From a virus: a stretch of DNA of 64,000 bases. The notes beneath the pieces were generated by a model. It searched no databases, was not told the DNA's origin, and was given only the letters and a program-made list of their open reading frames with translations. The DNA is taken from the IMG/VR virus record IMGVR_UViG_3300009181_000042, positions 38,746 to 102,745 of that record; one strand, 5' to 3'. The position numbers were made by a program, and so were the translations under genes. This document shows, piece by piece, positions 10,407 through 51,860 of the stretch. Numbering within the stretch: the stretch's first letter is position 1; every line of letters begins with the position of its first letter.

Positions 10407-10927
10407 GCCTGCTCGTCCTGCCCATACGCTGACCATGGTGTAAATGTCTTGCGATCCATGAGATCATGCAGGCTGTGTACCCACACGCCCGGATTGCTAG
10501 CTTTGAACCCAGTGTCGTCAATCTTCACGCAGGTATTGTAGTTTCCCAATCCGGCATAGGGTATCTTCACGCTGATCTGCGGAATGAACTGTGCATGGCT
10601 CATGGCAACCATTTCACAGGCACCTAGCCATTGTGCGATATCAAAATCCAGTGTGACCCAATACCCATGATCTAGCAGTGCAGTGCAAAGCTTGTCCCAG
10701 CGATCCCAACCAGCTGCATCGTCATATGCAGTCACGTCAAAGCTCTGATTGGCACCCAGATAGATGTGCCTACAGACCTTGCGTTCAGCAACACTTACGA
10801 TGTGCTCAACTGGGTGTACACCCACCACAAACAGCGTGTGTGCACCGCGTTGCGGAGTGTTTTCTACTTCCATGCCGGTGAAGAACACCACGTCGTTTTT
10901 TATACCGTCAACATAATCTCGTTCCAT
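10403..10927 (-). CDS. hypothetical protein translationally coupled to the dpdA-like gene
   Basis: TGATG overlap; alternating beta/alpha pattern (TLFVVG, HIYLGANQSF, WVTLDFD). Confidence 0.8.
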   Translation of the reverse strand: MERDYVDGIKNDVVFFTGMEVENTPQRGAHTLFVVGVHPVEHIVSVAERKVCRHIYLGANQSFDVTAYDDAAGWDRWDKLCTALLDHGYWVTLDFDIAQWLGACEMVAMSHAQFIPQISVKIPYAGLGNYNTCVKIDDTGFKASNPGVWVHSLHDLMDRKTFTPWSAYGQDEQA

Positions 10928-12588: not shown

Positions 12589-12593
12589 ATAAC

Positions 12594-12622
12594 AGTATGG
12601 CCTATGGCTGTGATCTTGTCAA
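12594..12622 (-). promoter_or_regulatory. sigma70-like promoter giving a probably leaderless dpdA mRNA
   Basis: TTGACA-N17-CATACT-N5-ATG, no SD. Confidence 0.6.
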
Positions 12623-13713
12623 GCATGAGTCAGCGCTTGTTTCAATGCGGTTGCGTTAAAGAACTTGTTACCAACCTGCTCGGCTTCGGCAAGTGCATGT
12701 GCTGCTAGGCTATTGCGCGACATCGCACTGCGAATGTGTGCAACAATCTTGTCTTTGTTAGCTTGATAGCTGTCCCAGTTCATGGTCCATTCGCTTGGAT
12801 AGCATTCCGACCACATCTCAGTGTAGCTCAGGCGATCTGGTACCATTGGATACGTGCCAACCAGCGCAGCTTCATACATGCTGATACCCAGTGTTTCTTG
12901 CAAGTTAGCACTGAATGCGATCTTGCTTTCGGCCAAGTGCTTGTGATACTCATTCTTGCTGAGTTTCTGATCCTGTGCTATGAACCACTCATACTCTGGC
13001 ATCGTCGCTGCTAGATCCTTGAATATCTCCAGTTGCTTCTCTGGTGCCAAGCGATGCGGGAATATGATCTTGTCCTGCTTGGCTGTGCTAGCAAATGGTG
13101 CCAGCAATGGTGCCATGTATTCCATGGGCCACCCAGTCAGCTTGAGACGATTGATCTCACTGTCCAAACACCCAGTGATGAACTCTTCGGTTTCGTCTTC
13201 AGAAAATAGAGTATCTACACCCAGTAGTTCGCGCAAGAACAAGTTGCTGTGGAATCGTGTGGCAAACCAATTGGTATCATAGGTATAGAACATGCTGGAT
13301 TCTGCATTGCGTACCCAAGGCTTATCGCCAACTAGCCGTCCCAAGAAGTCTTGCGGGTCATAGCTGCCAGCATGCCAAAGACCGTGTATCTCGATCTTTT
13401 TGCCAAGCAATTCAGCCATGTAGCGCAGCTGTATCACAGTAGGATTCCACGCATCAGTGTAGAGGAATTTGTCGCCGTCGTGTATGAGATTCTCACGAAA
13501 CAGCTGTGCGATGCTCATCAGCTGGCTGCTCTTGTAGATGTTTGTAGCACCAAAATCTAAGAACGCACCCGGTGTTGGTGTTGCAGGAACATTGTCCCCT
13601 TCGATGATGGCTACATCCGAGCCAACTGCGTCTAGCAGTTCGGGAATGTGTTCATACCACTGGCGTGTGTAGCGAGTGTCAATTGGTTCGATAGGGACGA
13701 TGTATATGGTCAT
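12619..13713 (-). CDS. GT-B glycosyltransferase (GT4-like)
   Basis: FPHRLAPEKQ and ETLGISMYE (Ex7E) motifs; ATGA-coupled start (MTIYIVPIEP). Confidence 0.8.
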   Translation of the reverse strand: MTIYIVPIEPIDTRYTRQWYEHIPELLDAVGSDVAIIEGDNVPATPTPGAFLDFGATNIYKSSQLMSIAQLFRENLIHDGDKFLYTDAWNPTVIQLRYMAELLGKKIEIHGLWHAGSYDPQDFLGRLVGDKPWVRNAESSMFYTYDTNWFATRFHSNLFLRELLGVDTLFSEDETEEFITGCLDSEINRLKLTGWPMEYMAPLLAPFASTAKQDKIIFPHRLAPEKQLEIFKDLAATMPEYEWFIAQDQKLSKNEYHKHLAESKIAFSANLQETLGISMYEAALVGTYPMVPDRLSYTEMWSECYPSEWTMNWDSYQANKDKIVAHIRSAMSRNSLAAHALAEAEQVGNKFFNATALKQALTHA

Positions 13714-21932: not shown

Positions 21933-24146
21933 TTAACTGTAGTCCATGGTTATGCGATAAGCACCTTGTGTACTGGTTCCTACGCCAACAAATGCCTTGA
22001 TTGCAGTGGTTGTTATCACTGGATAACTCAGTGATGTGGTGTAAGATCCCACAGTTGTAGTATCTATCAGCGTGTTGTCCATGAGCAAACCTGGTATGCT
22101 GTCAGTACCTATAGATATGTTGCTGGCTGAGTCGTTAAATGCTGTGGTTATCTGCACATCTAAGAACACCACAGTCTTAGGTGCTGCCATGGTACCAACC
22201 ATAACTGGACTTGTGCTAGTGTATGTGCCAGCAGCTAGGAAGTTATAGATCAGCGTGGTGCTGCCAACCGAGCTGTTACCAATGTTATGACCATCTGTGC
22301 TCAGTCCGATTGGTTGCCATATAGTAGGAACGAGTGCTGCTGCAATGTACGCTTGGTTATGACCGCTGCCGTCGTCGTATACATACACAATCGTGCCCTG
22401 CGTCACAGTCAGCGCATCACGGTCAGCAATGGTATTGACAAAATAACCAACTGCAACACCTGTTGGCCCAGTCGGACCAGTCAGCTGGCTGATGCTGCTG
22501 ATGCTCCAGGCTACGATATCAACAAGGTCGCCTGTTACGCTAGGCGCATTTAGCGTGATCACGTTTCCGTTATTAGCCAGATATTCACTAGGAGTAAGCT
22601 TAACACCGTTGACAAAGACTTCTACATAGGGCGGCGTGTATGCACACACAAACTGCGTTTGCCCATTGGTAGCCGCAAAATTATATTCTTGGAACGCACC
22701 AACGTTTGCAGGACCAGTGGGACCAGTAGCCCCGCTGCCTGTTGGGCCAGTAGCACCTGTTGGATTGATACCTGCCAGCTGCCATGCTATGATGGTAACA
22801 GGATCCCCGCCAACTGCTGCGTTGTCTAGTACTACTGTAACGCCGTCTGTAGCCACATACAGATCCGGAGTTAACAATATACCGTTATAATAAACGTCTA
22901 TCCATCCTACGTAGTAGGCAGCTGGAAAAACCGTTTGGCCATTTGTGGCTACAATGTCAAATCGAGCATACGCACCCAGTGCTGCGGGACCAGTAGGACC
23001 AATAGGCCCAGTTGAACCGCTTGTACCAGTTGGTCCGGTAGCACCTGTGTTCACTGCAGTGCCTGGGGTACCAGTTGGTCCAGTTGGACCGGTTGGACCA
23101 GTAAATCCTGTGCTGCTACCTATCACTTGCCAGTATGCATTGGTATCTGTTGGATTGATACAGATGTATGCCACATGTGTGGTGATGTTGATCCATATAC
23201 TGCCAAATCCATACCCAATGGTCTCATCGTCATTGACAGTTGGCGGATTAAGTGCAGTGTAGTTGTTTAGAGGTCCAACATAACCAACCTGTGCAAGCTT
23301 TACTGCGCTAGCATCGTCAATCTTGATATAGACCGGCATAGCAAGATTGTTGGGTCTGACAGTTGTTAGCCCGCCAGGGACAGTGGTGCTTAGATATAGT
23401 ACATCACCGGGTAATCCCGGCAGGCCGCTGAGCCCGTACAGTATCTTGCCGCGCGGTTCCCAACTAAAATAATCATAACCAGGTATACCCAGCTGTCGTA
23501 CTGTACCGATCACAGCAGTAGTTGTGTAACTATTTGCTATGGCTAGCTGATATGATCCGTCGTTGCGTAGATATATGACATCGCCGACATCAAACCCGTA
23601 CCCCGGTTGGAATATGGTTACCAGATTCTGTTTGAGGTTTCTTGACTCAAACTTGCTGATGACATCTTGCAGGAACCCTGGATAGGGTTGTATGAAGCTG
23701 TTGTACAGTGTTAGCGTGTGGAATACAGGAATACCGTCTTCGTCTATGGCAAATATGAATCCCGGATCGCCAGTTGCTGCAACACCGTCTTGGCTAGAGA
23801 ACTGTTCCCAACGGCCAGTGTCTTCGATAACACATTCGATGTAATCAGCTGTTGCTGTGGTTATCTGCACTATCTGGGTACATTTACCAGTAGCAGCCTC
23901 GCCGTACCACATGCCAACTTGTATGTCTAATCCGTCGTATATGTACAGCTGAGGTGTGCTAAAGCTGCTGTGATTCTGCTGTATGACCGTGGCAGTCATG
24001 GTCCAGCGATAGGGCTGCGGAGCAGGACCGCCTTGCCACCATTGATCTTCGCCATATACCGGACCTTCGTCGACTGGCCAATAGTCTAAGGGAGTTATGG
24101 TGATGTTGTCTACAAACAGCGTGAGGATTGGTAGGATGGATGCCAT
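21933..24146 (-). CDS. virion structural protein with short GPT collagen segments (737 aa)
   Basis: GPTGPTG runs separated by two ATNGQT-F...DVYYNG/EVFVNG domains. Confidence 0.75.
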   Translation of the reverse strand: MASILPILTLFVDNITITPLDYWPVDEGPVYGEDQWWQGGPAPQPYRWTMTATVIQQNHSSFSTPQLYIYDGLDIQVGMWYGEAATGKCTQIVQITTATADYIECVIEDTGRWEQFSSQDGVAATGDPGFIFAIDEDGIPVFHTLTLYNSFIQPYPGFLQDVISKFESRNLKQNLVTIFQPGYGFDVGDVIYLRNDGSYQLAIANSYTTTAVIGTVRQLGIPGYDYFSWEPRGKILYGLSGLPGLPGDVLYLSTTVPGGLTTVRPNNLAMPVYIKIDDASAVKLAQVGYVGPLNNYTALNPPTVNDDETIGYGFGSIWINITTHVAYICINPTDTNAYWQVIGSSTGFTGPTGPTGPTGTPGTAVNTGATGPTGTSGSTGPIGPTGPAALGAYARFDIVATNGQTVFPAAYYVGWIDVYYNGILLTPDLYVATDGVTVVLDNAAVGGDPVTIIAWQLAGINPTGATGPTGSGATGPTGPANVGAFQEYNFAATNGQTQFVCAYTPPYVEVFVNGVKLTPSEYLANNGNVITLNAPSVTGDLVDIVAWSISSISQLTGPTGPTGVAVGYFVNTIADRDALTVTQGTIVYVYDDGSGHNQAYIAAALVPTIWQPIGLSTDGHNIGNSSVGSTTLIYNFLAAGTYTSTSPVMVGTMAAPKTVVFLDVQITTAFNDSASNISIGTDSIPGLLMDNTLIDTTTVGSYTTSLSYPVITTTAIKAFVGVGTSTQGAYRITMDYS

Positions 24147-24159
24147 GGTTATGCTTCCA

Positions 24160-25491
24160 TCATCCGGTGAATATCATGGTAACCCAGAGATATCCATTAC
24201 CGCTAGTTGGTATACCAGTGTTACCAGGCGTCAGTGCAAACAAGCTGGTACTGTCAATAGTCAAGCTCAATGCGCTGTATGATCCGCCAGTTGCACCAGT
24301 TGGCACTGTTTGCCTATAAGCACCTGCTGGTTGGACCAACGGTCCACCCTGGCAGCTCACTATGCTAGGGTATTGGTTCAAGTTGTGATCAATGGTGATC
24401 TGTGTATCACTCAGTCTGGTTATCTGAGGTGCTGTTATGTTGACCAAGTTGTCCGCAAATGCAGTCGGTGCAATGATACCGCTGTTAAAGATCAATCTAA
24501 AGCTTATCAGGCTGGTTGCTGCTGGACCAGCTGAGCCAGTAGGACCACTTGGACCAGTAACGCCCTGTGTACCAGTCGGACCTGTTACTGCGCTGACAGG
24601 ACCCGTTGGTCCAGAATTACCCGTGGGCCCTGTGCCACCAGTCGGGCCAATTGGCCCGCCACTAGGACCCGTAGGACCGGTAACAGTTGATAGATTGGCT
24701 ATCTCCCAGGCTACAATGCTGACTGGGTCGCCGCCCAGCGCAGCGTTAGTTAATGTTACAGACGTGCCGTTGTCTGCGATATAATCGTTGGTTGGTACTA
24801 ACAACAGCCCGTTGTAGTAGACATCAACAAATCCTGGTTCGTATGCAGCAGCAAACACAGTCTGTCCGGGTGCTGCATACGTGTCGTATCGCATGAATGC
24901 ACCACTAGCAGCCGGACCAGTGGGGCCTGCGTTGCCAGTTGGACCTGTGCTATTTGGTCCGGTTGGACCTGGCGGACCCGGCGGGCCTTGTGCACCACCA
25001 GTGTTGGTAGCCTGCGGTGCATTGCCGCCGCCGGCAATGGCACCATAATTCAGCAGTATCTGACTGACCTGACCAACGAAATATACATCAGTTGGCGGCG
25101 GTACGAGATACTTGCGATCTACAACAGCACGCACCCAAACATAGTTGCCACTAAAATTGTAAGCGTAAATGCCAGTGTCACCGTTGGACGAATTAGGTGA
25201 TCCGTTTAGTGGCCATTGATTTAATTCTGGATTATAACCAGTTGGCAGTGCAGGATCTAACGGGAATTGCACATATGATGTGCCGTACCCGATTGGAATG
25301 TTGAACCAATCAGTTTCCTTTGGATCACTAGCCAAGCTGCCCTGTATATAGATGCGGCCTGTGAAATTGTCCAAATTGATGCTGACGGTGTGATTATTAC
25401 CAACCGTGTTGTTATAACCAGCGCCAGGCTGTTTAATGCCAATGACGTTGAGCTGATCTCTGGTATTAGTTAATAGTGTGACGCTGATCAT
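24160..25491 (-). CDS. virion structural protein with GPT collagen segments (443 aa)
   Basis: Same GQTVF...DVYYNG domain and collagen runs; TAAATA upstream. Confidence 0.75.
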   Translation of the reverse strand: MISVTLLTNTRDQLNVIGIKQPGAGYNNTVGNNHTVSINLDNFTGRIYIQGSLASDPKETDWFNIPIGYGTSYVQFPLDPALPTGYNPELNQWPLNGSPNSSNGDTGIYAYNFSGNYVWVRAVVDRKYLVPPPTDVYFVGQVSQILLNYGAIAGGGNAPQATNTGGAQGPPGPPGPTGPNSTGPTGNAGPTGPAASGAFMRYDTYAAPGQTVFAAAYEPGFVDVYYNGLLLVPTNDYIADNGTSVTLTNAALGGDPVSIVAWEIANLSTVTGPTGPSGGPIGPTGGTGPTGNSGPTGPVSAVTGPTGTQGVTGPSGPTGSAGPAATSLISFRLIFNSGIIAPTAFADNLVNITAPQITRLSDTQITIDHNLNQYPSIVSCQGGPLVQPAGAYRQTVPTGATGGSYSALSLTIDSTSLFALTPGNTGIPTSGNGYLWVTMIFTG

Positions 25492-25758: not shown

Positions 25759-26091
25759 TTAATTACGAATCTTTGGCTTGCGTCCTCGCTTACGACCAGT
25801 CGTTCGCATGGTACCGTCTGGTTTAACATTGTAGATATCAGCATATCTGTCTATGTTCATGCCATCTATTGCAGTGATGTCTTGGCTAGCAACTGTGATC
25901 TCATTGGTACCATTTGCTTGCTTTAGCGAAAACATTGCACTGTGTCCGTCGTGGTTGATTGATTGCAGTAGGTAATCATCAGCAACGTAACTGACCATGC
26001 CAAACTTGTTAGTAGTACCTCTGCGAGCAGTGACTATATTGTCCTTGACCAGTGCACCTATGCTGATTAATGTGTCTATCACATCTGTCAT
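25759..26091 (-). CDS. hypothetical protein with basic C-terminal tail (GRKRGRKPK)
   Basis: ATGA-coupled to clpA. Confidence 0.75.
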   Translation of the reverse strand: MTDVIDTLISIGALVKDNIVTARRGTTNKFGMVSYVADDYLLQSINHDGHSAMFSLKQANGTNEITVASQDITAIDGMNIDRYADIYNVKPDGTMRTTGRKRGRKPKIRN

Positions 26092-28373
26092 TGCACAACC
26101 TCTGCAACGTCTGACATCAGCAACAGCTGTTCTGATACTGGTTCTGGATTGCTGAGATACTCAAATTCAAGTTTATGGTCCTTGACAGTGATCATCACAG
26201 CACCACCGTTGCGCAGCCGTCCGAACAGTATTTCTTTGCTGATAGGCTGCTTGATGTTGTCGGCCATCACACGTGCCAACGGGCGTGCACCCATGTTCTT
26301 GTCAAAGCCTTTGTCAACCAACCACTGCTTGGCAGTGGGGTCGCACACCACGTTGACGTTCTTGCGCGAGCTTAGACTGTTGAGTTCTGCCAAGAACTTG
26401 TCAACGATGCTGTGCATGTTGTCCTTGTCAAGGCGGTTAAACTTGACCACGGCATCCAAGCGGTTCCTGAACTCTGGAGTGAAGAACTTGTTGATAGCTT
26501 GTGTATCTTCGTCTCTAGTTTCATTCTTGGTAAATCCAATCAGTTCCTTTTCCATCTCAGCTGCACCGAGGTTACTGGTGAAGATCACGATAGCATTGCG
26601 TGCGCTAGCACTCTTGCCTTGGCTGCTGGTCACAGTGCCGTGGTCCATCATAGCAAGGAAGATGTTGTACACATCTGGGTGTGCTTTTTCGATCTCATCA
26701 AACAGCAGCACACAGTGAGGATGTGTTTCCAGTTCGTTGATCAGCATGCCCCCACCTGCTCCGCCGTCACCATAACCAACGTAACCTGGAGGCGAGCCGA
26801 TGAATTTGCTGACAGTATGGCGTTCCTGAAACTCGCTCATGTCAAATCGTGTGAAGTGTACACCCAAGCTCTTGGCCAACTGCTTGGCCACTTCTGTCTT
26901 GCCAACCCCACTCGGTCCACTAAACAAGAAGCTGCCCACTGTTTTATCGCCTTCGCGCAATCCACTACGGCTCATATAGATTGCATTGACCACATTGTCA
27001 ATCGCATCTGCTTGACCAAAGATCTTGTTTTTCAGATCAGTGTCTAGCTGAGCTAGTCGATCAGCTTCCTTGCTCTTGACTGTGGTCACAGGCACCTTGG
27101 CAACCCTGCTGACTTCGGCTTCGATCTCAGCTTTGGTGATGACCTTGAGACGGTCACTTTCTGGTTTGATCCGCTGCCAGGCTGCTGCACTGTCAATGAT
27201 GTCGATGGCCTTGTCCGGCAAACACTTGTCATGCATGTGCTTGCTGGTCAGATCCACTGCTGCATCTAGTGCATCTGGATCAAAAGACAATCCGTGATAT
27301 TCTTCATAGTGCTTGGCAATGCCAGACAGTATGCGCTTGCTATCCTCAACGCTGGGTTCAAAGATATCCAGCTTTTGGAAACGCCGCACCAATGCACGAT
27401 CTTTCTCAAAGTGCTTGCGATATTCTTCGTTAGTGGTGCTGCCGATGCAACAAATCTCTCCGCGGCTCAGCGCAGGTTTCAGTATGTTAGCAGCATCCAG
27501 GCTTCCACCTGCACCGCCGCCGCTGCCGGCACCCATGATCATGTGGATTTCGTCAATGAACATGATGGTGTTAGGCAGCGTGGTGAACGCAGTGATGATC
27601 TGTTTCATGCGTTCTTCAAAGTCACCTCTGAACTTGGTGCCAGCTACCAGCGTGGCCACATCCAGGTTCCAGATCACGCGATCGAGCAAGATGTCAGGTA
27701 CATCTTTTTCCACGATGCGACGTGCTAACCCTTCTACGATCACGGTCTTACCCACACCCGGTTCACCGATCATGACCACATTGTGCTTGTTGCGCCGCGC
27801 AATGATTTGGGTGATGTTTTCAACTTCTTTCTCGCGACCAATCAGCGGATCTATGCGACCTGCTTGTGCCTTGGTGTTGAGGTTGATGCAGTACTGACTG
27901 AGTATCTCCAACGCAGTTGCACTGTCCATGATGCTGTCAGCACCGTCGTCTTTGCGGCCAACCAATTCTGCTATCTTTTCTTTTGGTGGTGCAAAGTTTT
28001 CAATGAACCAGCTGGCTGGACTATCTGGTATGTGATACAGTGCTAGCAGTATATCAATAGGGCCAATATCCTTGCGGCCGCTAAACATGCTCTGGGTCTT
28101 GGCTTTCTTGATCACGTTGCTGAGCAAGCTAGTGTGCCTGGGCTGGAAGCTACCTGTTCTCACTACTACATGATTGGCTTCGTTGTTAAGCCAATCGCTG
28201 GTATGTTTGACAAGTTTCTCAATATCGCCGCCCGCACCAACGATCAACTGTTGGATCTGTTCTTGCTCTAACAGCCCGGCCAGCAAGTGTTCTAGCGTGA
28301 CCAGTTCGTGGTTCAAGCTAGCTGCTAGCTGATATGCCCGCTGCAATGGTTGTTCAAATGCGCTAATGCTCAT
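26088..28373 (-). CDS. clpA: ATP-dependent Clp protease ATPase subunit, ClpA-like
   Basis: Clp N-domain (EHLLAGLL), two AAA+ modules (GEPGVGKT/FIDEIH; GPSGVGKT/FDEIEKAH), IGF loop, no ClpB middle domain. Confidence 0.93.
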   Translation of the reverse strand: MSISAFEQPLQRAYQLAASLNHELVTLEHLLAGLLEQEQIQQLIVGAGGDIEKLVKHTSDWLNNEANHVVVRTGSFQPRHTSLLSNVIKKAKTQSMFSGRKDIGPIDILLALYHIPDSPASWFIENFAPPKEKIAELVGRKDDGADSIMDSATALEILSQYCINLNTKAQAGRIDPLIGREKEVENITQIIARRNKHNVVMIGEPGVGKTVIVEGLARRIVEKDVPDILLDRVIWNLDVATLVAGTKFRGDFEERMKQIITAFTTLPNTIMFIDEIHMIMGAGSGGGAGGSLDAANILKPALSRGEICCIGSTTNEEYRKHFEKDRALVRRFQKLDIFEPSVEDSKRILSGIAKHYEEYHGLSFDPDALDAAVDLTSKHMHDKCLPDKAIDIIDSAAAWQRIKPESDRLKVITKAEIEAEVSRVAKVPVTTVKSKEADRLAQLDTDLKNKIFGQADAIDNVVNAIYMSRSGLREGDKTVGSFLFSGPSGVGKTEVAKQLAKSLGVHFTRFDMSEFQERHTVSKFIGSPPGYVGYGDGGAGGGMLINELETHPHCVLLFDEIEKAHPDVYNIFLAMMDHGTVTSSQGKSASARNAIVIFTSNLGAAEMEKELIGFTKNETRDEDTQAINKFFTPEFRNRLDAVVKFNRLDKDNMHSIVDKFLAELNSLSSRKNVNVVCDPTAKQWLVDKGFDKNMGARPLARVMADNIKQPISKEILFGRLRNGGAVMITVKDHKLEFEYLSNPEPVSEQLLLMSDVAEVVQ

Positions 28374-28885
28374 GCTGTTGCTTTCTGACGCTGTTGATTC
28401 TTCTGCTTCTTAGCTATCTTACGCTTTGCCATATCTAGCTGCACTCTGCCCACCCGGTCATCTATCATGATGCCTTGTAGATGGTCAAATTCGTGCAAGA
28501 ACACACGGGACCAACCTTCACCCATGTCCTGCACTTGTTGGTTGCCGTTACGGTCCCTGAACATGACCTTGATCTGCTTGGACCGCCGCAGGTTAAGCAC
28601 GATACCCGGCAAGCTGAGACAACCTTCTGGGTACAAGTCTGTTTCGCTACTTGCACTGATCACCACGGGATTTACAAACACATGCTCTTGACCTTCAAGC
28701 TTTACTACAAAAAGACTCAGGCTGTGTCCAACTTGTGGCGCAGCTAAGCCGACACCGCCGCTTGCTGCCAAAGTTTCAAACATATCATTGATCAAAGGCT
28801 GTAGGTTTGTTATCTCGGTGGGTTCAACCAACTGCGCTTGCTGTTTAAGTATTGGATTTGGTCGCTTAACTATTGGTAAAATCAT
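28370..28885 (-). CDS. def: peptide deformylase
   Basis: GVGLAAPQVG, EGCLS, HEFDHLQG. Confidence 0.95.
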   Translation of the reverse strand: MILPIVKRPNPILKQQAQLVEPTEITNLQPLINDMFETLAASGGVGLAAPQVGHSLSLFVVKLEGQEHVFVNPVVISASSETDLYPEGCLSLPGIVLNLRRSKQIKVMFRDRNGNQQVQDMGEGWSRVFLHEFDHLQGIMIDDRVGRVQLDMAKRKIAKKQKNQQRQKATA

Positions 28886-29772
28886 TTGATGTTTGCAGTC
28901 CTCTGAGTTTGTAGATCTTTCAATAAGTCTATGTGCTGTTGCGATAGATCAGTTGGTACAACTATGTTGATCCTGATGTACAAGTCGCCTCGCTGTCTAG
29001 CGTTATTATGCATTGGCATACCGTGACCTTGCAACCTGAGAACTGCGCCTGCTTGCGTGCCCGCTGGCACTTTTATGTTAAGCTTGGTACCATCTATGCT
29101 TGCAAGTACTTGATCGGCTCCTAGCATTGCTGCGATAGCGTCCACACTTATCTCTGTCTGCAAGTGCGGCCCATCTCTGTGGAATACTGCGTGATCATTG
29201 ATGATTATGGTTACATAGAGATCGCCTGGCGGCTGATTGGGTATGCTGCGATCGCCGTGGCCTTGGAAACGCAACTTGCTACCGTGCTGCACGCCTGCTG
29301 GGATGCTCACACTAATGTTAGTGTGCTGCCCATTAACTTCAAACCCGATAGGCATGTTCTTGCCAGTGTATGCTTCTTCCAGCGTAAGATTGAGATTGAA
29401 CTGATAATCTCGGTTGCGCTGCGGCTGTTGATACTGCGGCCGACCAAAACCCTGTCCAAAGAATTGGTTTATGATGTCGTCAAAATGTTGTCCGCCACCA
29501 AAATTAAAGTGGAAATCAGCGCCGGGAGCCCCGCCGCCGAAGTACTGATTCTGATTGCCGCCGCCTCTGCGCTGTTGGTCGTACTGGGCTCGTTTGCCTG
29601 CATCGCTCAGCATGTCGTTGGCTTCGTTGATCTGCTTGAATTTAGCTTCAGCAGCAGGGTTTCCCTTGTTGAGATCTGGGTGATGCACCTTGGCTAACCG
29701 CCGATATGCAGTTTTGATCTCATCTGGGCTAGCTGACTCGCTCAGCTCTAAAATCTTGTAATAGTCTTCCAT
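28882..29772 (-). CDS. dnaJ: DnaJ/CbpA-type co-chaperone (class B, no zinc finger)
   Basis: DYYKIL...HHPD J-domain, G/F-rich linker, C-terminal GDLY repeats. Confidence 0.92.
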   Translation of the reverse strand: MEDYYKILELSESASPDEIKTAYRRLAKVHHPDLNKGNPAAEAKFKQINEANDMLSDAGKRAQYDQQRRGGGNQNQYFGGGAPGADFHFNFGGGQHFDDIINQFFGQGFGRPQYQQPQRNRDYQFNLNLTLEEAYTGKNMPIGFEVNGQHTNISVSIPAGVQHGSKLRFQGHGDRSIPNQPPGDLYVTIIINDHAVFHRDGPHLQTEISVDAIAAMLGADQVLASIDGTKLNIKVPAGTQAGAVLRLQGHGMPMHNNARQRGDLYIRINIVVPTDLSQQHIDLLKDLQTQRTANIK

Positions 29773-29777
29773 GCTCA

Positions 29778-29807
29778 AGTGTAACCTATGTTGTGGTGAT
29801 ATGTCAA
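29778..29807 (-). promoter_or_regulatory. sigma70-like promoter, probably leaderless dnaJ-def-clpA transcript
   Basis: TTGACA-N18-TACACT-N5-ATG. Confidence 0.55.
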
Positions 29808-30615: not shown

Positions 30616-31329
30616 ATGCAGATCCTAATACCAATGAGCGGCGCCGGTAAGCGCTTTGCAGAAGTGGGATACGACAAACCCAAACCACTGATAGAGTTTT
30701 TTGGCAAGCCAATGGTCGAGCATGTGCTTGAAAACCTTGGATTGCATAACGAATTCATACTGTGCGTGCAGCGTGCGCATTATGATGCCAATCCTGCACT
30801 GTTTGCAAGATTGCGAGCACAAACAGCTGATCTAAAGCTGGTGTTTGTGGAACAGCTAACACAGGGTGCAGCCGAAACCTGCTTGCTAGCACGCGAGCAT
30901 ATCAAGCTAGATGAACCCTTGTTCATTGCCAACTGCGATCAGATGATGGTCTGGGATCAAGACCATTTCGAAGAATGGTTTGCTGCTGAACGACTGGACG
31001 GCTGCATGTTTACGTTTTTCAAGGACACTACTGCTTATAGCTATGTTGCAGTTGATGACAATAGTCTAGCTGTACGCACCGCAGAGAAGCAAGTGATCAG
31101 CACGCATGCTACTACTGGCATCTATGTATGGGCCAGAGGCAGTGATTTCATCTGGGCAGCCGAAAAAATGATAGCAGATAACGTGCGGGTGAATAATGAA
31201 TTCTATGTGTGCCCGGTGTATAATTGGAACATAGCACGCGGTGATCGCATTGGCATATATCCTCCGCAGGAACATTGGCCGATAGGTACACCAGAGGACC
31301 TAGACATCTACATCGAGGCGCACGCATGA
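30616..31329 (+). CDS. sugar-phosphate nucleotidyltransferase (BcbE/GlmU-like GT-A fold)
   Basis: IPMSGAGKRF...PKPLI, TQGAAET, IANCDQ, AEKQVIS, NEFYVCPVYN, GTPEDL. Confidence 0.88.
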   Translation: MQILIPMSGAGKRFAEVGYDKPKPLIEFFGKPMVEHVLENLGLHNEFILCVQRAHYDANPALFARLRAQTADLKLVFVEQLTQGAAETCLLAREHIKLDEPLFIANCDQMMVWDQDHFEEWFAAERLDGCMFTFFKDTTAYSYVAVDDNSLAVRTAEKQVISTHATTGIYVWARGSDFIWAAEKMIADNVRVNNEFYVCPVYNWNIARGDRIGIYPPQEHWPIGTPEDLDIYIEAHA

Positions 31330-31664
31330 AACTATATGATCCCACCAGCTTTAAAGGTGGCTGGTTCATAGGTGATTTTGAACCTAGCATCTGGCGAACC
31401 AGCGCATACGAAGTTGGGTATAAGCATCACATTGCCGGCGAGCCGTGGCCTGCTCATTATCACGAACACATGGACGAAGTTACTTTCTTGTTAGAGGGTA
31501 CCATGCGCATGCAAGACCAAGTGCTAACAGGACCTGTGCTGTTCTTGATAGAACGCAACGACGTAGCCGATCCAGTGTTTGTGACAGATTGCAAAGTGTT
31601 CATAGTAAAAGCACCCAGCGTGCCAGGCGACAAAATTGAAATCAACAAAGGACAACTCAAATGA
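31326..31664 (+). CDS. cupin-fold protein
   Basis: GGWFIGDF; AHYHEHMDEVTFLLEG (HxHxxxxE); ATGA-coupled. Confidence 0.75.
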   Translation: MKLYDPTSFKGGWFIGDFEPSIWRTSAYEVGYKHHIAGEPWPAHYHEHMDEVTFLLEGTMRMQDQVLTGPVLFLIERNDVADPVFVTDCKVFIVKAPSVPGDKIEINKGQLK

Positions 31665-32803
31665 CGATTGATATCGTACGAGACGAAAAAGAGCTAGGTA
31701 CGTATTTCTATGTTACCTATGAAGTGGAGAGCACGGTCAGTGTATACGATGCTGGGTGGAACATTGCAGTCGGACAAAGCATAGGTAACCCCACCAAGCG
31801 CAGTGTCTGGGAGACAGACGACATGATCGAGAACCACTGTGCAAAGATAATGCGCAGTAAGGACTTTGAAAAGAAGAAAGGGCGTGTCACTATTGCGTAC
31901 CCTAACGCAAACATAGACTGGGAAACTGACGGTATCGCGCATCTACTGTGCATGATACAGGGCGGACAAGTAGACATTGATACCATCAGGAAATGTCGAG
32001 TAGTTGACCTAGAGATACACCCCCAGACCATAGACACCTATTTCCGTAAACCAAAATACGGTATCACAGGTATGCGCGAGTACACAGGGAACTTCGGCAA
32101 GCCATTCTTTGGTGGGATCGTAAAACCCAAGACAGGTATCACGCCACAGATCCTGCTGGAAATGACCAAAGAACTAGTCGAAGGCGGTGTTAACTTCATC
32201 AAGGAAGATGAGATACTCAGCAATCCAAACATATGCCGCTTGGAAGATCGTGTTGAGCTGATCAGCAATTACTTACAAGACAAGCGAGTCGTATACTGCT
32301 TCTGCATCAACAGCGACCCTGCACACATCGAAAACCGCGCTCGCTTTGTTAGCCAGAACGGTGGTAACGGTGTACACATCAACGTGTGGAGCGGGCTCGG
32401 CAGCTATCGTACCATACGCAATTTGGATCTGCCGCTGTTCATACACTATCAAAAGAGCGGCGACAAGGTGATCACCGGCAAGCGTAACCCGTTTGGTATC
32501 GAATGGACTGTGCTGTGCCAGCTGGCTGCTATGAGCGGAGTTGATACCATACATGCTGGTATGTGGGGCGGTTATCTCAGCGATCCAGAAGATGAGATCA
32601 CTGCATACATGAAGGTGCTGCACGACGGTAATGTAGTCCCTGCACTTAGCTGCGGTATGACTGCGGAATTGATCCCACCGATTGTTGAGAAGTTTGGCAT
32701 AGATTGGATGGCCAATGTGGGCGGCGCTATACATGGTCATCCAGATGGCACACTAGCTGGTGCTCGCAAGATACGCAACGCTATTGATACATACCAATAT
32801 TGA
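31661..32803 (+). CDS. RuBisCO-like protein (form IV), 380 aa
   Basis: GGIVKPKTG, GGVNFIKEDE (carbamylation motif), GVDTIHAG, PALSCG, GGAIHGHPDG. Confidence 0.92.
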   Translation: MTIDIVRDEKELGTYFYVTYEVESTVSVYDAGWNIAVGQSIGNPTKRSVWETDDMIENHCAKIMRSKDFEKKKGRVTIAYPNANIDWETDGIAHLLCMIQGGQVDIDTIRKCRVVDLEIHPQTIDTYFRKPKYGITGMREYTGNFGKPFFGGIVKPKTGITPQILLEMTKELVEGGVNFIKEDEILSNPNICRLEDRVELISNYLQDKRVVYCFCINSDPAHIENRARFVSQNGGNGVHINVWSGLGSYRTIRNLDLPLFIHYQKSGDKVITGKRNPFGIEWTVLCQLAAMSGVDTIHAGMWGGYLSDPEDEITAYMKVLHDGNVVPALSCGMTAELIPPIVEKFGIDWMANVGGAIHGHPDGTLAGARKIRNAIDTYQY

Positions 32804-32819
32804 AACGCTGCGAGGACTG

Positions 32820-33293
32820 ATGCTGATCATAGCACATAGAGGATTGCTTGATGGTCCGGATGCCGACAGGGAGAATCGCCCAGATCAGATACAGCAGGCG
32901 CTAGCCGAAGGGTTTGATGTCGAGATTGATCTATGGCGCATAGATCATACATGGATGCTGGGCCACGATGTTCCAACATACATGGTGTCTGAAAATTTCA
33001 TCAAACAGGACGGCCTTTGGATACACTGCAAGAATCTCGCTGCATTCTTCTATCTGCGAAACATTGGTAGCGAATACAATTTCTTTTGGCACGATAGCGA
33101 TCTCATTGTCATGACCAGCAGGTTCTTAACCTGGACATATTTTGGTAAGCCAGAAACTGCGCATCACACGAGCGTGTGTGTCATGCCAGAAGTTACATAC
33201 GATTGGCCTACCATAGAAAACATGTTCGACAAGAACGAGTGGTATGGATTCTGCACAGATTATCCGAGGAAGCTTGCTGCATGCAAAAGATAG
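32820..33293 (+). CDS. GDPD/PLC-like phosphodiesterase-fold protein
   Basis: IIAHRG...EN...GFDVEIDLW...LGHD...WIHCKN...CTDYP; GAGGA SD. Confidence 0.8.
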   Translation: MLIIAHRGLLDGPDADRENRPDQIQQALAEGFDVEIDLWRIDHTWMLGHDVPTYMVSENFIKQDGLWIHCKNLAAFFYLRNIGSEYNFFWHDSDLIVMTSRFLTWTYFGKPETAHHTSVCVMPEVTYDWPTIENMFDKNEWYGFCTDYPRKLAACKR

Positions 33294-34018
33294 CGCTATG
33301 TCTCACAGGGCACTTTAGGAATTTTGAAATTGCCTGGCCCTATCTAAAGAAACATGTGATAGATCCGTATCAACCAGACGTGTTTGGATTTGCGTGGGGC
33401 GATACATTTGGCAATTTCATGCATGCTAAAGATAAAGATCATCCCAGTTACACGCTAGGGTATGATCCGGCTAGCCAGGACATACCTCGCGACTATGCAG
33501 AAAGTGTCGCCAGGCGTTTACATCCCAAGGTACTTGAAGTATTTGATCCAACTAGTATCAACCCACTGCTAGATGAACTGATAGCCAAGCATAAAGATGT
33601 TGAACCAGACTGGGAATGGCACCGTCCTAGATCAAAGTATCAGATGTTGTACGGCCGTGCGCATTGCAACAATCTACGGCTAGAATATGAGAAGCTGTGT
33701 GGTGCTAGTTACGACAAGATCATATTCACTCGTTGGGATATAATACACGAAGATCCATTGCCGCAATGGTGCCTCTGGGACACTAGATTGATATTACCAC
33801 GTAGATATGCATACAACGGACCGTCTGATATATGGGCAGTAGGTACCAGTAGCCAGGTCAATGCATATGCAGATATGCTGTCGTCCTATGACGCCGTCAA
33901 ACAAACTCCAAATTTCGTATCAAATCCACACTTATGGTTGCGCGATGCGCTGGCATATTCTAATGTAGAGTGGATATTGTGCAATATCCCTGTAATGATA
34001 GCAAACAGGCCATTCTGA
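33281..34018 (+). CDS. putative glycosyltransferase-like protein
   Basis: KIALCLTGHFR, YDKIIFTRWDI, SDIWAVG; start reassigned to ATG 33281. Confidence 0.6.
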   Translation: MQKIALCLTGHFRNFEIAWPYLKKHVIDPYQPDVFGFAWGDTFGNFMHAKDKDHPSYTLGYDPASQDIPRDYAESVARRLHPKVLEVFDPTSINPLLDELIAKHKDVEPDWEWHRPRSKYQMLYGRAHCNNLRLEYEKLCGASYDKIIFTRWDIIHEDPLPQWCLWDTRLILPRRYAYNGPSDIWAVGTSSQVNAYADMLSSYDAVKQTPNFVSNPHLWLRDALAYSNVEWILCNIPVMIANRPF

Positions 34019-34025
34019 GGTACCA

Positions 34026-34988
34026 ATGAAGATAGCTGTATATGGTCTGGCAAAAAATGACCTAAATTTGATAGATCGATGGATTCACAGCGTGTCACCC
34101 GCTGATTATCTCGTCATTGGTGATCTTGGTAGCAGCGACGGCAGCGTAGATGTGCTGCGAAGTAACACCGTGACAGTGCATGAGATCAGCATGAGCAGAT
34201 TGCGATTTGATCGTGCTCGAAACACAGTATTAAATCTACTACCAAATGATACCGACGTTTGTATCAGTTGCGACCTCAGAGAATTTATGATGCCTGGGTG
34301 GCGATCGAACATCGAAAGGAGCTGGGTGTCAGGCAGCACCCGCATGATACACTCGTATGTACAAAGTTTCAACTTAGATCAGTATCCACCATTTAGATCA
34401 GCTGAGAACATGATACATGCTAGACATGGATCAAACTGGCGTCGTCCGATACGAGAACGTCTTGGATCAACTACACTAGACAAATGGATAACCAACCTCG
34501 ATATAGTGTTGTGCCATAATGGCGAGCCCTATATCGATGCAGCCGAACTGTTAGATTTGTTACAAGTATCGCATGCTGAAGATCCTACTTGCTTGGAAAC
34601 TATGTTCTTGTTTGGCAGCGAGCTTGCACATCGAGGTATCAAACCACATGCAATTACTATGTTGCGCAAGTTCCTCAATGCGCCATCGATTGGGTTATCG
34701 GTCGAACGTAGTGAAGCCTGGCGCTTGTTAGCTGGTCTCGAGCCGCATGAGAAGTTGAAGAATCTACGTCTTAGCACAATAGCAGATCAGACTCGTCGAG
34801 AGCCTTGGTTAGAGCTCTGTGAGCATTATCTAAAGGTATCCGATTGGGCCAATCTCTACGCTGCTTGCAAGGAAGCTATGCAAATACAAAAAAACACACT
34901 TAACAGCGCTGATAATCCCGATGCATGGAGCAATCGATTCTCAGAATTGCAAAGCACTGCTATAGCTGAACTTGGTATATCAAAATGA
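34026..34988 (+). CDS. GT2-like glycosyltransferase with TPR-like tail, degenerate DxD
   Basis: DLGSSDGS, RFDRARN, CISCDLRE; helical C-terminus paralogous to 35646 and 36715. Confidence 0.75.
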   Translation: MKIAVYGLAKNDLNLIDRWIHSVSPADYLVIGDLGSSDGSVDVLRSNTVTVHEISMSRLRFDRARNTVLNLLPNDTDVCISCDLREFMMPGWRSNIERSWVSGSTRMIHSYVQSFNLDQYPPFRSAENMIHARHGSNWRRPIRERLGSTTLDKWITNLDIVLCHNGEPYIDAAELLDLLQVSHAEDPTCLETMFLFGSELAHRGIKPHAITMLRKFLNAPSIGLSVERSEAWRLLAGLEPHEKLKNLRLSTIADQTRREPWLELCEHYLKVSDWANLYAACKEAMQIQKNTLNSADNPDAWSNRFSELQSTAIAELGISK

Positions 34989-35644
34989 CCACGTTGGCAC
35001 TGTGTTTTGCAGGTCTACCTCGCATAACAGACACTAGCACTGATAGCTGGCGTCGACTGATAGAACAACACAATACTGATGTATTTGTGCATGCATGGTC
35101 AACTGAGACAGAACTTGCTCGCAACTGGATCAGTGCTACCTATGCACCAGTTGAAATGATAATAGATGCCCCTCGACAGTTTGATACAAGCCGATATGTT
35201 AACAGGATCTGGGCGTACATATCAGAACCTCGTAATGTGCTAAGCATGTGGTACAGCATAGCACAAAGCTTGTCGCTTGCTGATAGGTATGCGCATGCAC
35301 ATCGCAAGACCTATGATTATGTTGCACGAGCTCGGTTTGATTGGCACTGTGACCAGTTCACGCTAGAAACATATGACGGCCTAACAGTACCGGATGATCC
35401 GGGTCTTTGCAATCACAATTTCCAGCACAGAGGACAATGGTATGTGGCACACAATGATCAATTTGGTTATGGCAGCATGCACGTGATGCGAGACTACGGT
35501 GAAACATTCTCGAGGATACCCTGGTTATATGCCACAGATGGCATAGACTTCTGCAGTGAATTATTTTTAACAACAAATATGATAACCAAGCAAATTCCGG
35601 TTAAATTACAAAAGGGCATGCGCTATCGCATGGTAAGGAACTGA
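34985..35644 (+). CDS. putative glycosyltransferase-like protein
   Basis: LALCFAGLPR, DVFVHAW, SMWYSI, YDYVARARFD, NDQFGYG. Confidence 0.6.
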   Translation: MTTLALCFAGLPRITDTSTDSWRRLIEQHNTDVFVHAWSTETELARNWISATYAPVEMIIDAPRQFDTSRYVNRIWAYISEPRNVLSMWYSIAQSLSLADRYAHAHRKTYDYVARARFDWHCDQFTLETYDGLTVPDDPGLCNHNFQHRGQWYVAHNDQFGYGSMHVMRDYGETFSRIPWLYATDGIDFCSELFLTTNMITKQIPVKLQKGMRYRMVRN

Positions 35645-35645
35645 T

Positions 35646-36713
35646 ATGAAAATCGCCGTATATACCATATCACTTAACGAGATCAAGCACTGCGAACGCT
35701 GGGCTAACAGCGTAACAGATGCTGATTATCGCGTGGTACTCGATACAGGTAGCACAGATGGCACGGTAGAAAAACTCAGAGAGCTGGGTGTCACAGTATT
35801 TGAACAGCGTTTTGATCCGTGGCGGTTTGATCATGCTCGCAATGCTGCACTAGCATGTGTACCAGATGATGCAGAGATCTGCATCAGCCAGGACATGGAT
35901 GAGTTCCTTGCAGAAGGATGGCGGCCTAAGATGACAGCTGCTTGGCACACAGGCGAGACCACACGCTTGGCCTATACGTATGTGTTTGATTATCGAGACG
36001 GCGGGGCCAATGCCGGTTTCCGCATGGACAAGATACATGCCAGGACAGGCTACGAATGGAAAAGGCCTGTACATGAGACTGTTTTTAACACAACGGGTCG
36101 TGAGGTTGTAGCAGAAGATCTCAGCATTGCATTGAACCAGATACAGGACCGCAACAAGGGCACACGCAGCAATTATCTACCACTGATGGCCGTAGCCACC
36201 AAAGAAGATCCCAAGGATAGCCAGCTGAGCTTTTGGTATGGGCGCGAGCTGATGTATGCCAATCAACACAGCGAAGCGGTTGCAGAACTAAATCGATATC
36301 TTGATCTTGAGACCAGCAGATGGCCGGTTGAACGTAGCGAAGCTATGCTCTATATGTCTCGCATGAGCGATAGCCGCAAGCTTGAATTCATACAGCGTGC
36401 GCTGATATGCTCGCCTGAGCGCAGGCAAGTATGGTTAGAACTGGCCCGCTATTATTACAACACGCAAGATTGGCACGGACTGCTATGGGCATGCGGAAGC
36501 GGTATGGAGCGTAGCAGACGTGATCACAGCTACTTAGATCATGCAGAAGCCTGGGGCAACCAGCTGCTGGATTTTGGTGCTATTGCAGCAGCAAATCTAG
36601 GTTGGTATACTCAAGCAGCCGATTGGTGCCAACAAGCACTGGACCTGCAGCCAACAGACGATAGATTAAAGAACAATCTGCAGTGGATGCAGAGCAAGAA
36701 AAAGGAGCAGTGA
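35646..36713 (+). CDS. GT2 glycosyltransferase with TPR repeats
   Basis: DTGSTDGT, WRFDHARN, CISQDMDE, WKRPVHE; TPR-like C-terminus. Confidence 0.88.
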   Translation: MKIAVYTISLNEIKHCERWANSVTDADYRVVLDTGSTDGTVEKLRELGVTVFEQRFDPWRFDHARNAALACVPDDAEICISQDMDEFLAEGWRPKMTAAWHTGETTRLAYTYVFDYRDGGANAGFRMDKIHARTGYEWKRPVHETVFNTTGREVVAEDLSIALNQIQDRNKGTRSNYLPLMAVATKEDPKDSQLSFWYGRELMYANQHSEAVAELNRYLDLETSRWPVERSEAMLYMSRMSDSRKLEFIQRALICSPERRQVWLELARYYYNTQDWHGLLWACGSGMERSRRDHSYLDHAEAWGNQLLDFGAIAAANLGWYTQAADWCQQALDLQPTDDRLKNNLQWMQSKKKEQ

Positions 36714-36714
36714 T

Positions 36715-37788
36715 ATGCGTATTGCAATATATGGACCAACCAAGAATCAAGTGCATCACGTACAAGCATGGTACGACAGCTGCAAGGATGCTGATGCAAT
36801 ATGCATAGCTGATACCGGCAGCACAGATGGTACCAAAGAAGCCATGATTGCACTGGGCATACAAGTGACAGATGTTAGGATCGTGCCGTGGAGGTTTGAT
36901 GATGCGTTCAACACGGCAATGTATTTGGTACCAGATGACATTGATGTTTGTATACGACTGGACACTGATGAGCGATTGGTCAAAGGCTGGCGCAAGGCAT
37001 TGGAAAAAGCATGGACAGCTGAGACCACACGGCTGCGATATCCGTACACCTGGAACTGGAACCCAGATGGCACTCCTGGCCGCCAATGGTATGGCGATCG
37101 CATACATGCTCGCAAAGGGTATCGTTGGATGGGTGCCACGCATGAAGGTTTGATCAGCCGCACACCAGAGATCCAGACATTCACTGAAAATGTCAAGATA
37201 CATCATTTCCCAGATCCAAAAAGCAAATCTGGTGACTTATCGCTGCTAGAAGAAAGCGTGCGCGAATGGCCGCATGATGCTAGGATCAAAGCGTACTTGG
37301 CTCGCGAATACATGTACCAAAAGCAGTTTGATAAAGCTGCAGAGACCTACAAAGAATTCCTCGGCATGAGCTATGACACTGCAGAACGCTGCCAGGCGCT
37401 AACATCATTAGCACAAGCCGAACCAGACAACAAAGTGTTTTGGTTGAAGCAAGCTGCGTATGAAGTCCCAACTCACCGCGAACCTCTGGTGTATCTAGCA
37501 CAGCATTACTATGAAAAAGCTGAGTGGAAGAACTGCTATGATCATGCCAAGCGTGCGCTAAAGATCACTAAACATCCAATGGATTATACATGCACACCAG
37601 AAGCTTGGGGCTGGCAACCACTTGATCTAGTGAGTATTGCTGCATGGAACCTCAAGTTGTACGAAGAATGCTTGGAATACGCAAAGTTAGCACTTGAAAA
37701 ATTGCCAAACGATACCAGGCTTCAAAATAACCTGAGATTGATCGAAGAATTCATAGAAAAGAACCTACGGTCAAATGATGCTGTTTGA
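36715..37788 (+). CDS. GT2 glycosyltransferase with TPR repeats
   Basis: DTGSTDGT, WRFDDAFN, CIRLDTDE, WMGATHE; TPR-like C-terminus. Confidence 0.88.
   Translation: MRIAIYGPTKNQVHHVQAWYDSCKDADAICIADTGSTDGTKEAMIALGIQVTDVRIVPWRFDDAFNTAMYLVPDDIDVCIRLDTDERLVKGWRKALEKAWTAETTRLRYPYTWNWNPDGTPGRQWYGDRIHARKGYRWMGATHEGLISRTPEIQTFTENVKIHHFPDPKSKSGDLSLLEESVREWPHDARIKAYLAREYMYQKQFDKAAETYKEFLGMSYDTAERCQALTSLAQAEPDNKVFWLKQAAYEVPTHREPLVYLAQHYYEKAEWKNCYDHAKRALKITKHPMDYTCTPEAWGWQPLDLVSIAAWNLKLYEECLEYAKLALEKLPNDTRLQNNLRLIEEFIEKNLRSNDAV

Positions 37789-41536: not shown

Positions 41537-45730
<4,194 letters not shown>

Positions 45731-46181: not shown

Positions 46182-51860
<5,679 letters not shown>

Follow-up and report, generated by a model that had tools for sequence, protein, structure and literature searches.

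An RLP Gene Within a Nine-Gene Phage Operon

We analyzed a 64,000-nucleotide stretch of viral DNA (the window; positions 38,746 to 102,745 of IMG/VR record IMGVR_UViG_3300009181_000042) that encodes a RuBisCO-like protein (RLP) with a distinctive active site. The RLP gene is a stop-free open reading frame (ORF) at 31661–32803 on the + strand, and its product, P0001, is a 380-amino-acid (aa) homologue of the RuBisCO large chain. Coordinates refer to the window unless another locus is named. The gene is the third of a tight nine-gene + strand operon with ATGA start/stop overlaps, where it follows genes for a sugar-phosphate nucleotidyltransferase and a small cupin and precedes genes for a miniature phosphodiesterase and predicted glycosyltransferases.

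Fold and Size of the RLP

Pfam, an AlphaFold2 (AF2) model, and Foldseek all assign P0001 to the RuBisCO superfamily. The N- and C-terminal large-chain domains were both detected above the Pfam cutoff (PF00016 at 5.4e-37 and PF02788 at 2.5e-7), and the top PDB sequence match is the archaeal form III enzyme 2cwx (1.3e-35), with RLPs close behind. The AF2 model (predicted local distance difference test, pLDDT, 94.7; predicted template modeling score, pTM, 0.92) shows a complete RuBisCO fold comprising the N-terminal α/β domain and the C-terminal TIM-barrel domain. Foldseek matched it to the Pyrococcus horikoshii form III enzyme with a TMq of 0.90. Residues 1–380 of the model align to RuBisCOs and RLPs with Z of 39–43 and rmsd of 2.1–2.6, a ranking that does not discriminate among them, as form I, II/III, and III enzymes and RLPs all fall within this Z range.

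An earlier reading of the sequence made without database searches, here called the first-pass annotation, had described the protein as compact, and this description holds. The median length is 380 aa among close relatives of P0001 versus 423.5 aa among other superfamily representatives, and AF2 residues 3–380 correspond to residues 22–429 of spinach RuBisCO, leaving P0001 about 20 residues short at the N-terminus and about 45 residues short at the C-terminus. Relative to canonical sequences, 9–28 N-terminal and 24–27 C-terminal residues are missing, together with a 6-residue loop after residue 206 and 4–20 residues after residues 321–323. When RuBisCO closes, its C-terminal extension lies packed against loop 6 from above. 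Shortness had also been taken to suggest a separate substrate class. Length alone is no evidence for such a class, and the argument for one comes instead from the conserved gene neighborhood and gene fusions described below.

Active-Site Residues

We mapped active-site residues with three methods: HMMER pairwise alignment to PDB chains; a MAFFT L-INS-i alignment of 112 sequences drawn from the family and superfamily, compared with a representative in which every canonical motif is present; and profile–profile alignment of a 50-sequence family alignment to canonical sequences using hhalign (probability 100, 358 columns). The three alignments gave an identical residue map for P0001. The frequencies below refer to a set of 112 family proteins, which are non-identical and derive from both viral and cellular loci.

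The metal site and its surroundings are retained. The KPK motif of RuBisCO (K175-P-K177) corresponds to K155-P156-K157 of P0001 (32123–32131, + strand, as for all sites that follow) in the MAFFT and hhalign alignments and is invariant. K201, the carbamylated Lys of RuBisCO, and the metal ligands D203 and E204 correspond to K181, D183, and E184 within K181-E182-D183-E184 (32201–32212; each of the three in 112/112), and K181 would presumably be carbamylated as well. In RuBisCO, this Lys-Asp-Glu triad and the KPK motif make and stabilize the enediolate. Also kept are H327 (H298 in P0001), S379 (S330), G381 (G332), and G403/G404 (G354/G355, 32720–32725; 112/112 and 110/112), the last pair being part of the P1 phosphate site. 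The first-pass annotation had listed K175/K177, K201/D203/E204, H327, S379, and G403/G404 as conserved, and all three alignments agree with it.

Other catalytic positions are replaced. H294 and R295 become Q264 and K265 (32450–32455; Gln in 112/112, Lys in 110, and Arg in 2), and K334 becomes Y305, with 32552–32575 running from H298 through a shortened loop 6 to Y305 (both residues in 112/112). These changes had been recognized by eye, and formal alignment likewise places Y305 and Q264, rather than the canonical Lys and His, at K334 and H294. The proposed substitutions of E60 and N123 by Gln were read one residue out of register. At E60-S61 the alignments place G38-Q39 (31772–31777; family motif GQS[IV]GNP; both residues in 112/112), and at N123-V124 they place G102-Q103 (31964–31969; family motif GGQ; 112/112 for G102 and 107/112 for Q103). 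Both anchors are ungapped on either side, with NIAvGQSIG in P0001 against rIAsESSIG in RuBisCO for E60 and LL..i.GGQ....R..D against LF..vaGNV....R..D for N123, so a register shift would need two compensating indels. Five further replacements had been missed: T65 by N43, W66 by P44, RuBisCO H298 by D268, D198 by N178, and G380 by C331, the last within S330-C331-G332 (S379-G380-G381 in RuBisCO; 32648–32656; MAFFT; all 112/112).

P0001 therefore lacks the full catalytic set of RuBisCO forms I–III, with G38, G102, Q264, and Y305 at the positions of E60, N123, H294, and K334. In RuBisCO, these four residues are essential for carboxylation and act, together with the C-terminal tail, in polarizing CO2, in hydrating and cleaving the adduct, and in closing loop 6. 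The first-pass annotation considered CO2 fixation unlikely, and it now appears very unlikely because all four residues are replaced. As for its statement that Mg–carbamate enolization should be intact, the triad and KPK motif are indeed kept and invariant, and enolization itself would be the expected activity of such a site. The predicted P1 phosphate site is intact (G332, G354, G355), and the predicted distal phosphate site is altered, as K265 and D268 substitute for R295 and H298.

Twenty positions are invariant in all 112 proteins: G38, Q39, N43, P44, G102, K155, K157, K181, D183, E184, R197, H239, N241, Q264, H298, Y305, S330, C331, G332, and G354. The ratio of nonsynonymous to synonymous substitution (dN/dS) for the RLP gene is 0.028 and 0.069 against homologues of 92% and 80% identity, respectively, with dS near saturation. 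This invariance and the purifying selection evident in a dN/dS of 0.03–0.07 mark the active site as selected and distinctive rather than a result of decay or chance. The 20-residue signature makes the clade readily recognizable and offers clear targets for mutagenesis.

Placement Within the RuBisCO Superfamily

Among the NCBIfam models, P0001 reached no curated functional RLP or RuBisCO family, with every score far under its cutoff: rubisco_III (TIGR03326), 177 versus 497 bits; NF003252, 167 versus 438; NF010002, 99.5 versus 489; MtnW, 127 versus 409 (NF007095) and 102 versus 513.6 (TIGR03332); and OiaX (NF042437), 130 versus 700. An exhaustive HMMER search of 1.84 billion representatives recovered the family at approximately 450–170 bits, followed by ordinary RuBisCOs and RLPs at ≤150 bits and approximately 30% identity. 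A different search found 2570 related proteins at E ≤ 0.001, a count that takes in other members of the RuBisCO superfamily. Relatives of P0001 are encoded on 180 viral contigs, some of 200–520 kb, the longest being 518 kb. A tblastn search of the RLP against 50,697 GenBank phage records gave no match, and these records therefore provide no cultured-phage reference.

In a FastTree phylogeny (132 rows), 22 viral and 27 cellular sequences form one branch with a support of 100 and a length of 0.45, separate from the 82 other representatives of the superfamily. One of its members is a Beckwithbacteria sequence (L095) that adjoins the viral group. The tree was computed solely with FastTree, and the other representatives are not named, so we make no claim about position relative to named RLP subgroups. 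Even so, the 100% separation from these unnamed representatives argues against membership of P0001 in IV-DeepYkr, the 5-methylthioribulose-1-phosphate isomerase type of Rhodospirillum rubrum, as far as a sequence tree can indicate. The clade contains phage, Beckwithbacteria, DPANN, SAR11 (Pelagibacter), and Legionella sequences. Among cellular genomes, it is carried on a complete Pelagibacter chromosome and in three Legionella species, Nonomuraea rosea (Actinomycetota), Azospirillum oleiclasticum, candidate phyla radiation (CPR) bacteria, and DPANN archaea.

Jaffe et al. described approximately 80 phage "Form IV-like" RLPs from IMG/VR that group with Beckwithbacteria, with key residues only partly conserved and a function that was not known (Jaffe et al. 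2019, Mol Biol Evol; PMC6389311). P0001 matches this phage-rich clade because it is phage-encoded and groups with Beckwithbacteria apart from other RLPs. The two sets share large IMG/VR phage contigs as their source, divergent sequences, and partly kept key residues, and we found no conflict with membership when comparing P0001 to the published description of the clade (PMC6389311). The first-pass idea of a separate class thus stands insofar as no curated RLP function was matched, but the clade had already been described, with no function assigned to it. New relative to that work (PMC6389311) are the residue signature, the host range extending to SAR11, Legionella, DPANN, and Actinomycetota, and a linkage and fusions to nucleotidyltransferases, neither of which is discussed there. 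A 2026 survey of the superfamily collapses RLPs into an outgroup.

The resemblance to archaeal form III enzymes (2cwx/2d69 of P. horikoshii and 3a12 of Thermococcus kodakarensis) is substantial, with 28% identity, TMq 0.90, Z 43, the two-domain fold, the KPK motif, and the K-x-D-E metal site in common. A true if unusual carboxylase of ribulose 1,5-bisphosphate (RuBP) that aids host carbon fixation during infection would account for the complete fold, the closest structures being form III, and the intact metal site. It would not account for the invariant replacement of E60, N123, H294, R295, H298, and K334, for a protein 40–60 aa shorter that lacks the C-terminal tail, or for the low rubisco_III score. 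In addition, the archaeal AMP-pathway context is absent: PRK, AMP phosphorylase, and ribose-1,5-bisphosphate (R15P) isomerase genes were not found nearby in the window operon or in the annotated neighbor clusters (1–11, 14–16, 20, and 21 of the 28 listed from the neighborhood analysis below). We consider carboxylation in this role extremely unlikely.

An activity like that of OiaX, a β-keto-acid decarboxylase/transcarboxylase found among apiose-pathway RLPs, or another known RLP activity is also very unlikely. The 130-bit match to the OiaX model lends this option some weight, as such RLPs demonstrate that C–C chemistry is possible on this fold without K334, but that score compares with a cutoff of 700, and the family occupies its own fully supported branch. 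Moreover, the neighborhood, with its nucleotidyltransferase and glycosyltransferases, is biosynthetic rather than catabolic, and the acid-sugar kinase/dehydrogenase set was not seen in the window operon or the annotated clusters.

Conserved Neighborhood and Gene Fusions

We clustered de novo all genes within 6 kb of the RLP gene in 127 RLP loci. A nucleotidyltransferase is near the RLP gene in 120 of the 127 and adjoins it in 78/80 viral and 46/50 cellular loci. Other recurrent neighbors are the cupin (79/127), a miniature GDPD-like phosphodiesterase (mini-GDPD; 76/127), DUF7796 proteins (44/127), and a GDP-mannose 4,6-dehydratase (Gmd) that scores above its equivalog cutoff (43/127), along with methyltransferases, WavE, GT25, and DegT. 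A literature search for an RLP together with a nucleotidyltransferase and glycosyltransferases found none.

Several of these partners also occur as fusions. One protein joins the RLP to the nucleotidyltransferase (P0122, 667 aa), two loci fuse the nucleotidyltransferase to the cupin (L044, L058), and five fuse it to a domain of the haloacid dehalogenase (HAD) family that is nearest to the β-phosphoglucomutase family (L018, L022, L038, L078, L013). The fusion of the RLP to an enzyme suggests a metabolic step, which bears on whether P0001 might be catalytically dead, a scaffold or regulatory subunit serving only to bind a sugar phosphate. Some RLPs are indeed without demonstrated activity, but here all 112 sequences, from phages, bacteria, and archaea, keep the metal ligands and KPK motif, dN/dS is approximately 0.03, and we regard a dead protein as highly improbable.

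The adjacency of a nucleotidyltransferase and a small metal cupin, fused in L044 and L058, recalls the type II phosphomannose isomerase (PMI)/GDP-mannose pyrophosphorylase, and a genuine Gmd often neighbors the RLP. In contrast, the cupin of the RLP module has no PMI Pfam match, and the inserted RLP and mini-GDPD have no counterpart in the GDP-mannose pathway.

Two cellular loci suggest variations on the module. In Legionella nautarum (L124), a LicD-family phosphotransferase gene (6648–7499 of that locus, − strand; PF04991 at 1e-42) is divergent from the RLP–nucleotidyltransferase pair, so that in this genus transfer of the activated product may involve a phospho-sugar or phospho-alcohol instead of a glycosyl group. 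In Nonomuraea rosea (L121), RLP, cupin, nucleotidyltransferase, and GT2 genes are followed by S-adenosylhomocysteine (AdoHcy)-hydrolase-like NAD-binding and deoxynucleoside-kinase-like genes (10876–12908 of that locus), and the region is bounded by integrase and transposase genes; this set could represent a nucleoside-linked form of the pathway carried by a mobile island.

Nine phage loci encode an AroB-like sugar-phosphate cyclase of the 3-dehydroquinate-synthase family within 6 kb of the RLP (for example, L033:10146–11207). It scores 207 bits, under the aroB cutoff of 305, and gives a hint that some versions of the module involve cyclitol or C7 sugar chemistry. The wider set of related proteins contains other domain combinations. 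A 583-aa metagenomic protein (P0196) carries a TIR domain (PF13676 at 3e-13) N-terminal to both RuBisCO domains, a fusion that might link the RuBisCO fold to NAD-cleaving defense signaling. Two proteins of 726 and 742 aa (P0160 and P0164) fuse a domain of the IF-2B family, the family of ribose-1,5-bisphosphate isomerase and MtnA, to a RuBisCO with 7 and 8, respectively, of 8 screened canonical motifs. They appear to unite two consecutive AMP-pathway steps in one polypeptide.

The Operon Genes

All nine genes of the window operon lie on the + strand. The nucleotidyltransferase (30616–31329; PF00483 at 2e-9, PF12804) has as its nearest PDB entry a nucleoside-diphosphate-sugar pyrophosphorylase (4evw, 2e-15). 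It is most like sugar-1-phosphate enzymes, with only a marginal match to the KdsB model (E 0.11), and its stop codon shares an ATGA with the start of the cupin gene. The 112-aa cupin (31326–31664), whose stop in turn overlaps the RLP start (ATGA), has an invariant HxH...E metal site (H44, H46, E51); its PDB profile matches are to cupins, the best being a quercetin dioxygenase domain.

Downstream of the RLP lies the 157-aa mini-GDPD (32820–33293), with the invariant pattern HR(G)..N..E.D..LGHD. A Pfam scan of 33 mini-GDPD sequences gave nothing significant, and only the PDB profile search found a match (7e0v at 6e-5). It is followed by the first DUF7796 copy (33281–34018; PF25072 at 4e-7), probably a GT-A-fold transferase, which falls into one blastp cluster with the second copy (34985–35644) at 18% identity. 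The fold is taken from the AF2 prediction for the second copy (pLDDT 95.3), for which the best Foldseek match is GT6 (E 3e-7, TM 0.5–0.57). A sequence-profile search of the PDB with DUF7796 returned no match, and an Atlas search returned DUF7796 clusters only. Between the two copies is a 320-aa paralogue of GT2–tetratricopeptide repeat (TPR) proteins (34026–34988); without a Pfam match of its own, it shows 32–38% identity by tblastn to the very ORFs of other loci that are also matched by the 355-aa GT2-TPR protein. The operon ends with a GT2 glycosyltransferase with a TPR tail (35646–36713; PF00535 at 8e-6, TPR matches) and a second GT2-TPR protein (36715–37788; TPR_2 at 6e-6, PF00535 at 0.008). 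The first of these also has a weak match (E 0.001) to TPR_P4H, the collagen-binding TPR of prolyl 4-hydroxylase. A promoter and terminator scan of the operon found fewer promoter-like sites than in shuffled sequences.

The combination of an RLP, an HxH...E cupin of the quercetin dioxygenase type, and HAD–nucleotidyltransferase fusions brings together the same three folds as methionine salvage. In the established Bacillus pathway, the enolase MtnW is followed by the HAD phosphatase MtnX and the cupin dioxygenase MtnD. By analogy, an acireductone-type route would have the RLP enolize a 2,3-diketo-1-phosphate, the HAD domain remove the phosphate, and the cupin oxidatively cleave the ene-diol to a 2-keto acid, which the nucleotidyltransferase would activate in the manner of a CMP-ulosonic acid. 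MtnW/YkrW enzymes (2oem of Geobacillus kaustophilus, 2zvi of Bacillus subtilis) match the P0001 model with Z 40–41 and show how an RLP carbamate–Mg site, partnered by a HAD phosphatase and a cupin, can serve only the enolization of a phosphate ester beside a carbonyl. P0001, however, scores far under the MtnW cutoffs, lies on another branch of the tree, and occurs in a glycan-biosynthesis rather than a methionine-salvage context. It also has Gly at the N123 position, which we take to be the site of the catalytic Lys in the N-terminal domain of YkrW-type enzymes. Genes like MtnA, MtnB, and MtnK were not seen in the window operon, in two cellular loci with annotated flanks, or in the annotated neighbor clusters. 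The HAD domain is β-phosphoglucomutase-like and absent from the window operon, and the nucleotidyltransferase resembles sugar-1-phosphate enzymes more than KdsB. We regard an acireductone-type route as unlikely. Carboxylase, MtnW enolase, and OiaX assignments were thus all considered and rejected on model scores, residue changes, and gene context.

The Phage and Its Tail Fibers

The IMG/VR record is 102,745 bp long, with a CheckV completeness of 20%. Besides several genes for collagen-like tail fibers, the window encodes an exonuclease, a ClpB-like ATPase, and a QueE-like protein. The replicon that carries the RLP is a huge tailed phage, as indicated by the tail-fiber genes in the window and by relatives on viral contigs as long as 518 kb.

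Giant collagen-like tail-fiber genes with G-P-T repeats are exceptionally concentrated here and flank the operon on both sides. Three lie on the + strand (41567–45730, 46182–51860, and 51914–64000) and three on the − strand (14707–21867, 21933–24146, and 24160–25491). One of these ORFs encodes at least 4029 aa and is open at the window end, and others encode 2386, 1892, and 1387 aa.

Elsewhere in the window, a QueE-like radical SAM gene (4448–5422, − strand; phrog_2076 at 1.7e-52) suggests 7-deazaguanine modification of the phage DNA. A 761-aa ClpB/ClpA-like ATPase is encoded within 26088–29778 (− strand; phrog_4871 at 2e-246). Directly upstream of it on the same strand, a by-eye reading of the translations found peptide deformylase-like and DnaJ-type chaperone-like ORFs.

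Proposed Function and Mechanism

On balance, we lean toward P0001 being a Mg–carbamate enolizing isomerase that contributes to an unusual activated sugar. In the proposed mechanism, K181 would be carbamylated, and the carbamate, D183, and E184 would hold Mg2+. A ketose phosphate would bind with its phosphate in the P1 site (G332, G354, G355), and the oxygens of its carbonyl and hydroxyl groups would sit on the metal. Abstraction of the proton beside the carbonyl would then give a metal-stabilized enediolate. Lacking E60, N123, H294, K334, and the C-terminal tail, the enzyme would neither add CO2 nor process the resulting product; instead, the enediolate would be reprotonated elsewhere to give an isomer or epimer or, less likely, lose phosphate. 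Candidate proton donors are the invariant Y305, H298, Q264, and H239/N241. The product, in many genomes perhaps after a cupin and a HAD step, would pass to the adjacent nucleotidyltransferase for conversion to an activated sugar, which the downstream GT-A-fold and GT2-TPR transferases would place on an acceptor. This acceptor may be the collagen-like fibers that flank the operon. Such chemistry has a precedent on this scaffold: as an established side reaction, the enediol of RuBisCO is mis-protonated and yields xylulose bisphosphate (PMC9833046).

Loss of phosphate is the basis of another possibility, in which P0001 acts as a phosphate-eliminating lyase: a ketose 1-phosphate or bisphosphate would be enolized and its β-phosphate expelled to give a 1-deoxy-2,3-diulose phosphate, a deoxy-sugar precursor. 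Larimer, Harpel, and Hartman reportedly observed in 1994 that RuBisCO variants mutated at the positions of E60 and K334 still enolize RuBP but divert the enediol to β-elimination of phosphate, and both positions are replaced in P0001, by G38 and Y305. Deoxy-sugar genes (Gmd, DegT) are also frequent neighbors of the RLP. No reductase, however, is a constant partner, our literature search gave only reviews of misfire products, and the strict conservation of the P1 site (G332, G354, G355) fits phosphate binding and is silent on elimination. We find a lyase of this kind quite improbable.

Several points weigh against an isomerase that feeds sugar activation. Members of the clade have no established substrate, product, or activity, and gene neighborhood is circumstantial evidence. 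Many cellular loci lack the cupin and the mini-GDPD, the window operon has no HAD gene, and the proposed pathway does not account for the mini-GDPD. The usual products of RLP chemistry are ketose phosphates that carry a primary phosphate, and the nucleotidyltransferase is most like sugar-1-phosphate enzymes, so at least one extra step by a mutase or isomerase would be needed. By analogy, the trio of RLP, HAD domain, and metal cupin could be read in terms of the enolase/phosphatase/dioxygenase logic of methionine salvage. Finally, the lining of the pocket by the replacement residues is putative.

Extended to the whole clade, the proposal is that the RuBisCO fold has a hitherto unrecognized biosynthetic role, supplying the sugar phosphate from which an unusual nucleotide-activated sugar is made; this sugar would decorate surface structures in huge phages, SAR11, Legionella, bacteria of the CPR, and DPANN archaea. 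In our view, this broader proposition is evenly balanced. In the window phage, the decorated target would probably be the collagen-like tail fibers.

Significance

RLPs are the main evidence for roles of the RuBisCO fold before or besides CO2 fixation. To our knowledge, only a handful of RLP activities have been established, all of them in salvage or catabolism. The clade described here is large and widespread, with an invariant and distinctive active site and a nearly obligate nucleotidyltransferase partner. Should this linkage have a chemical basis, it would place an RLP in the biosynthesis of glycan precursors for the first time and would identify a new activated sugar on the surfaces of phages and bacteria.

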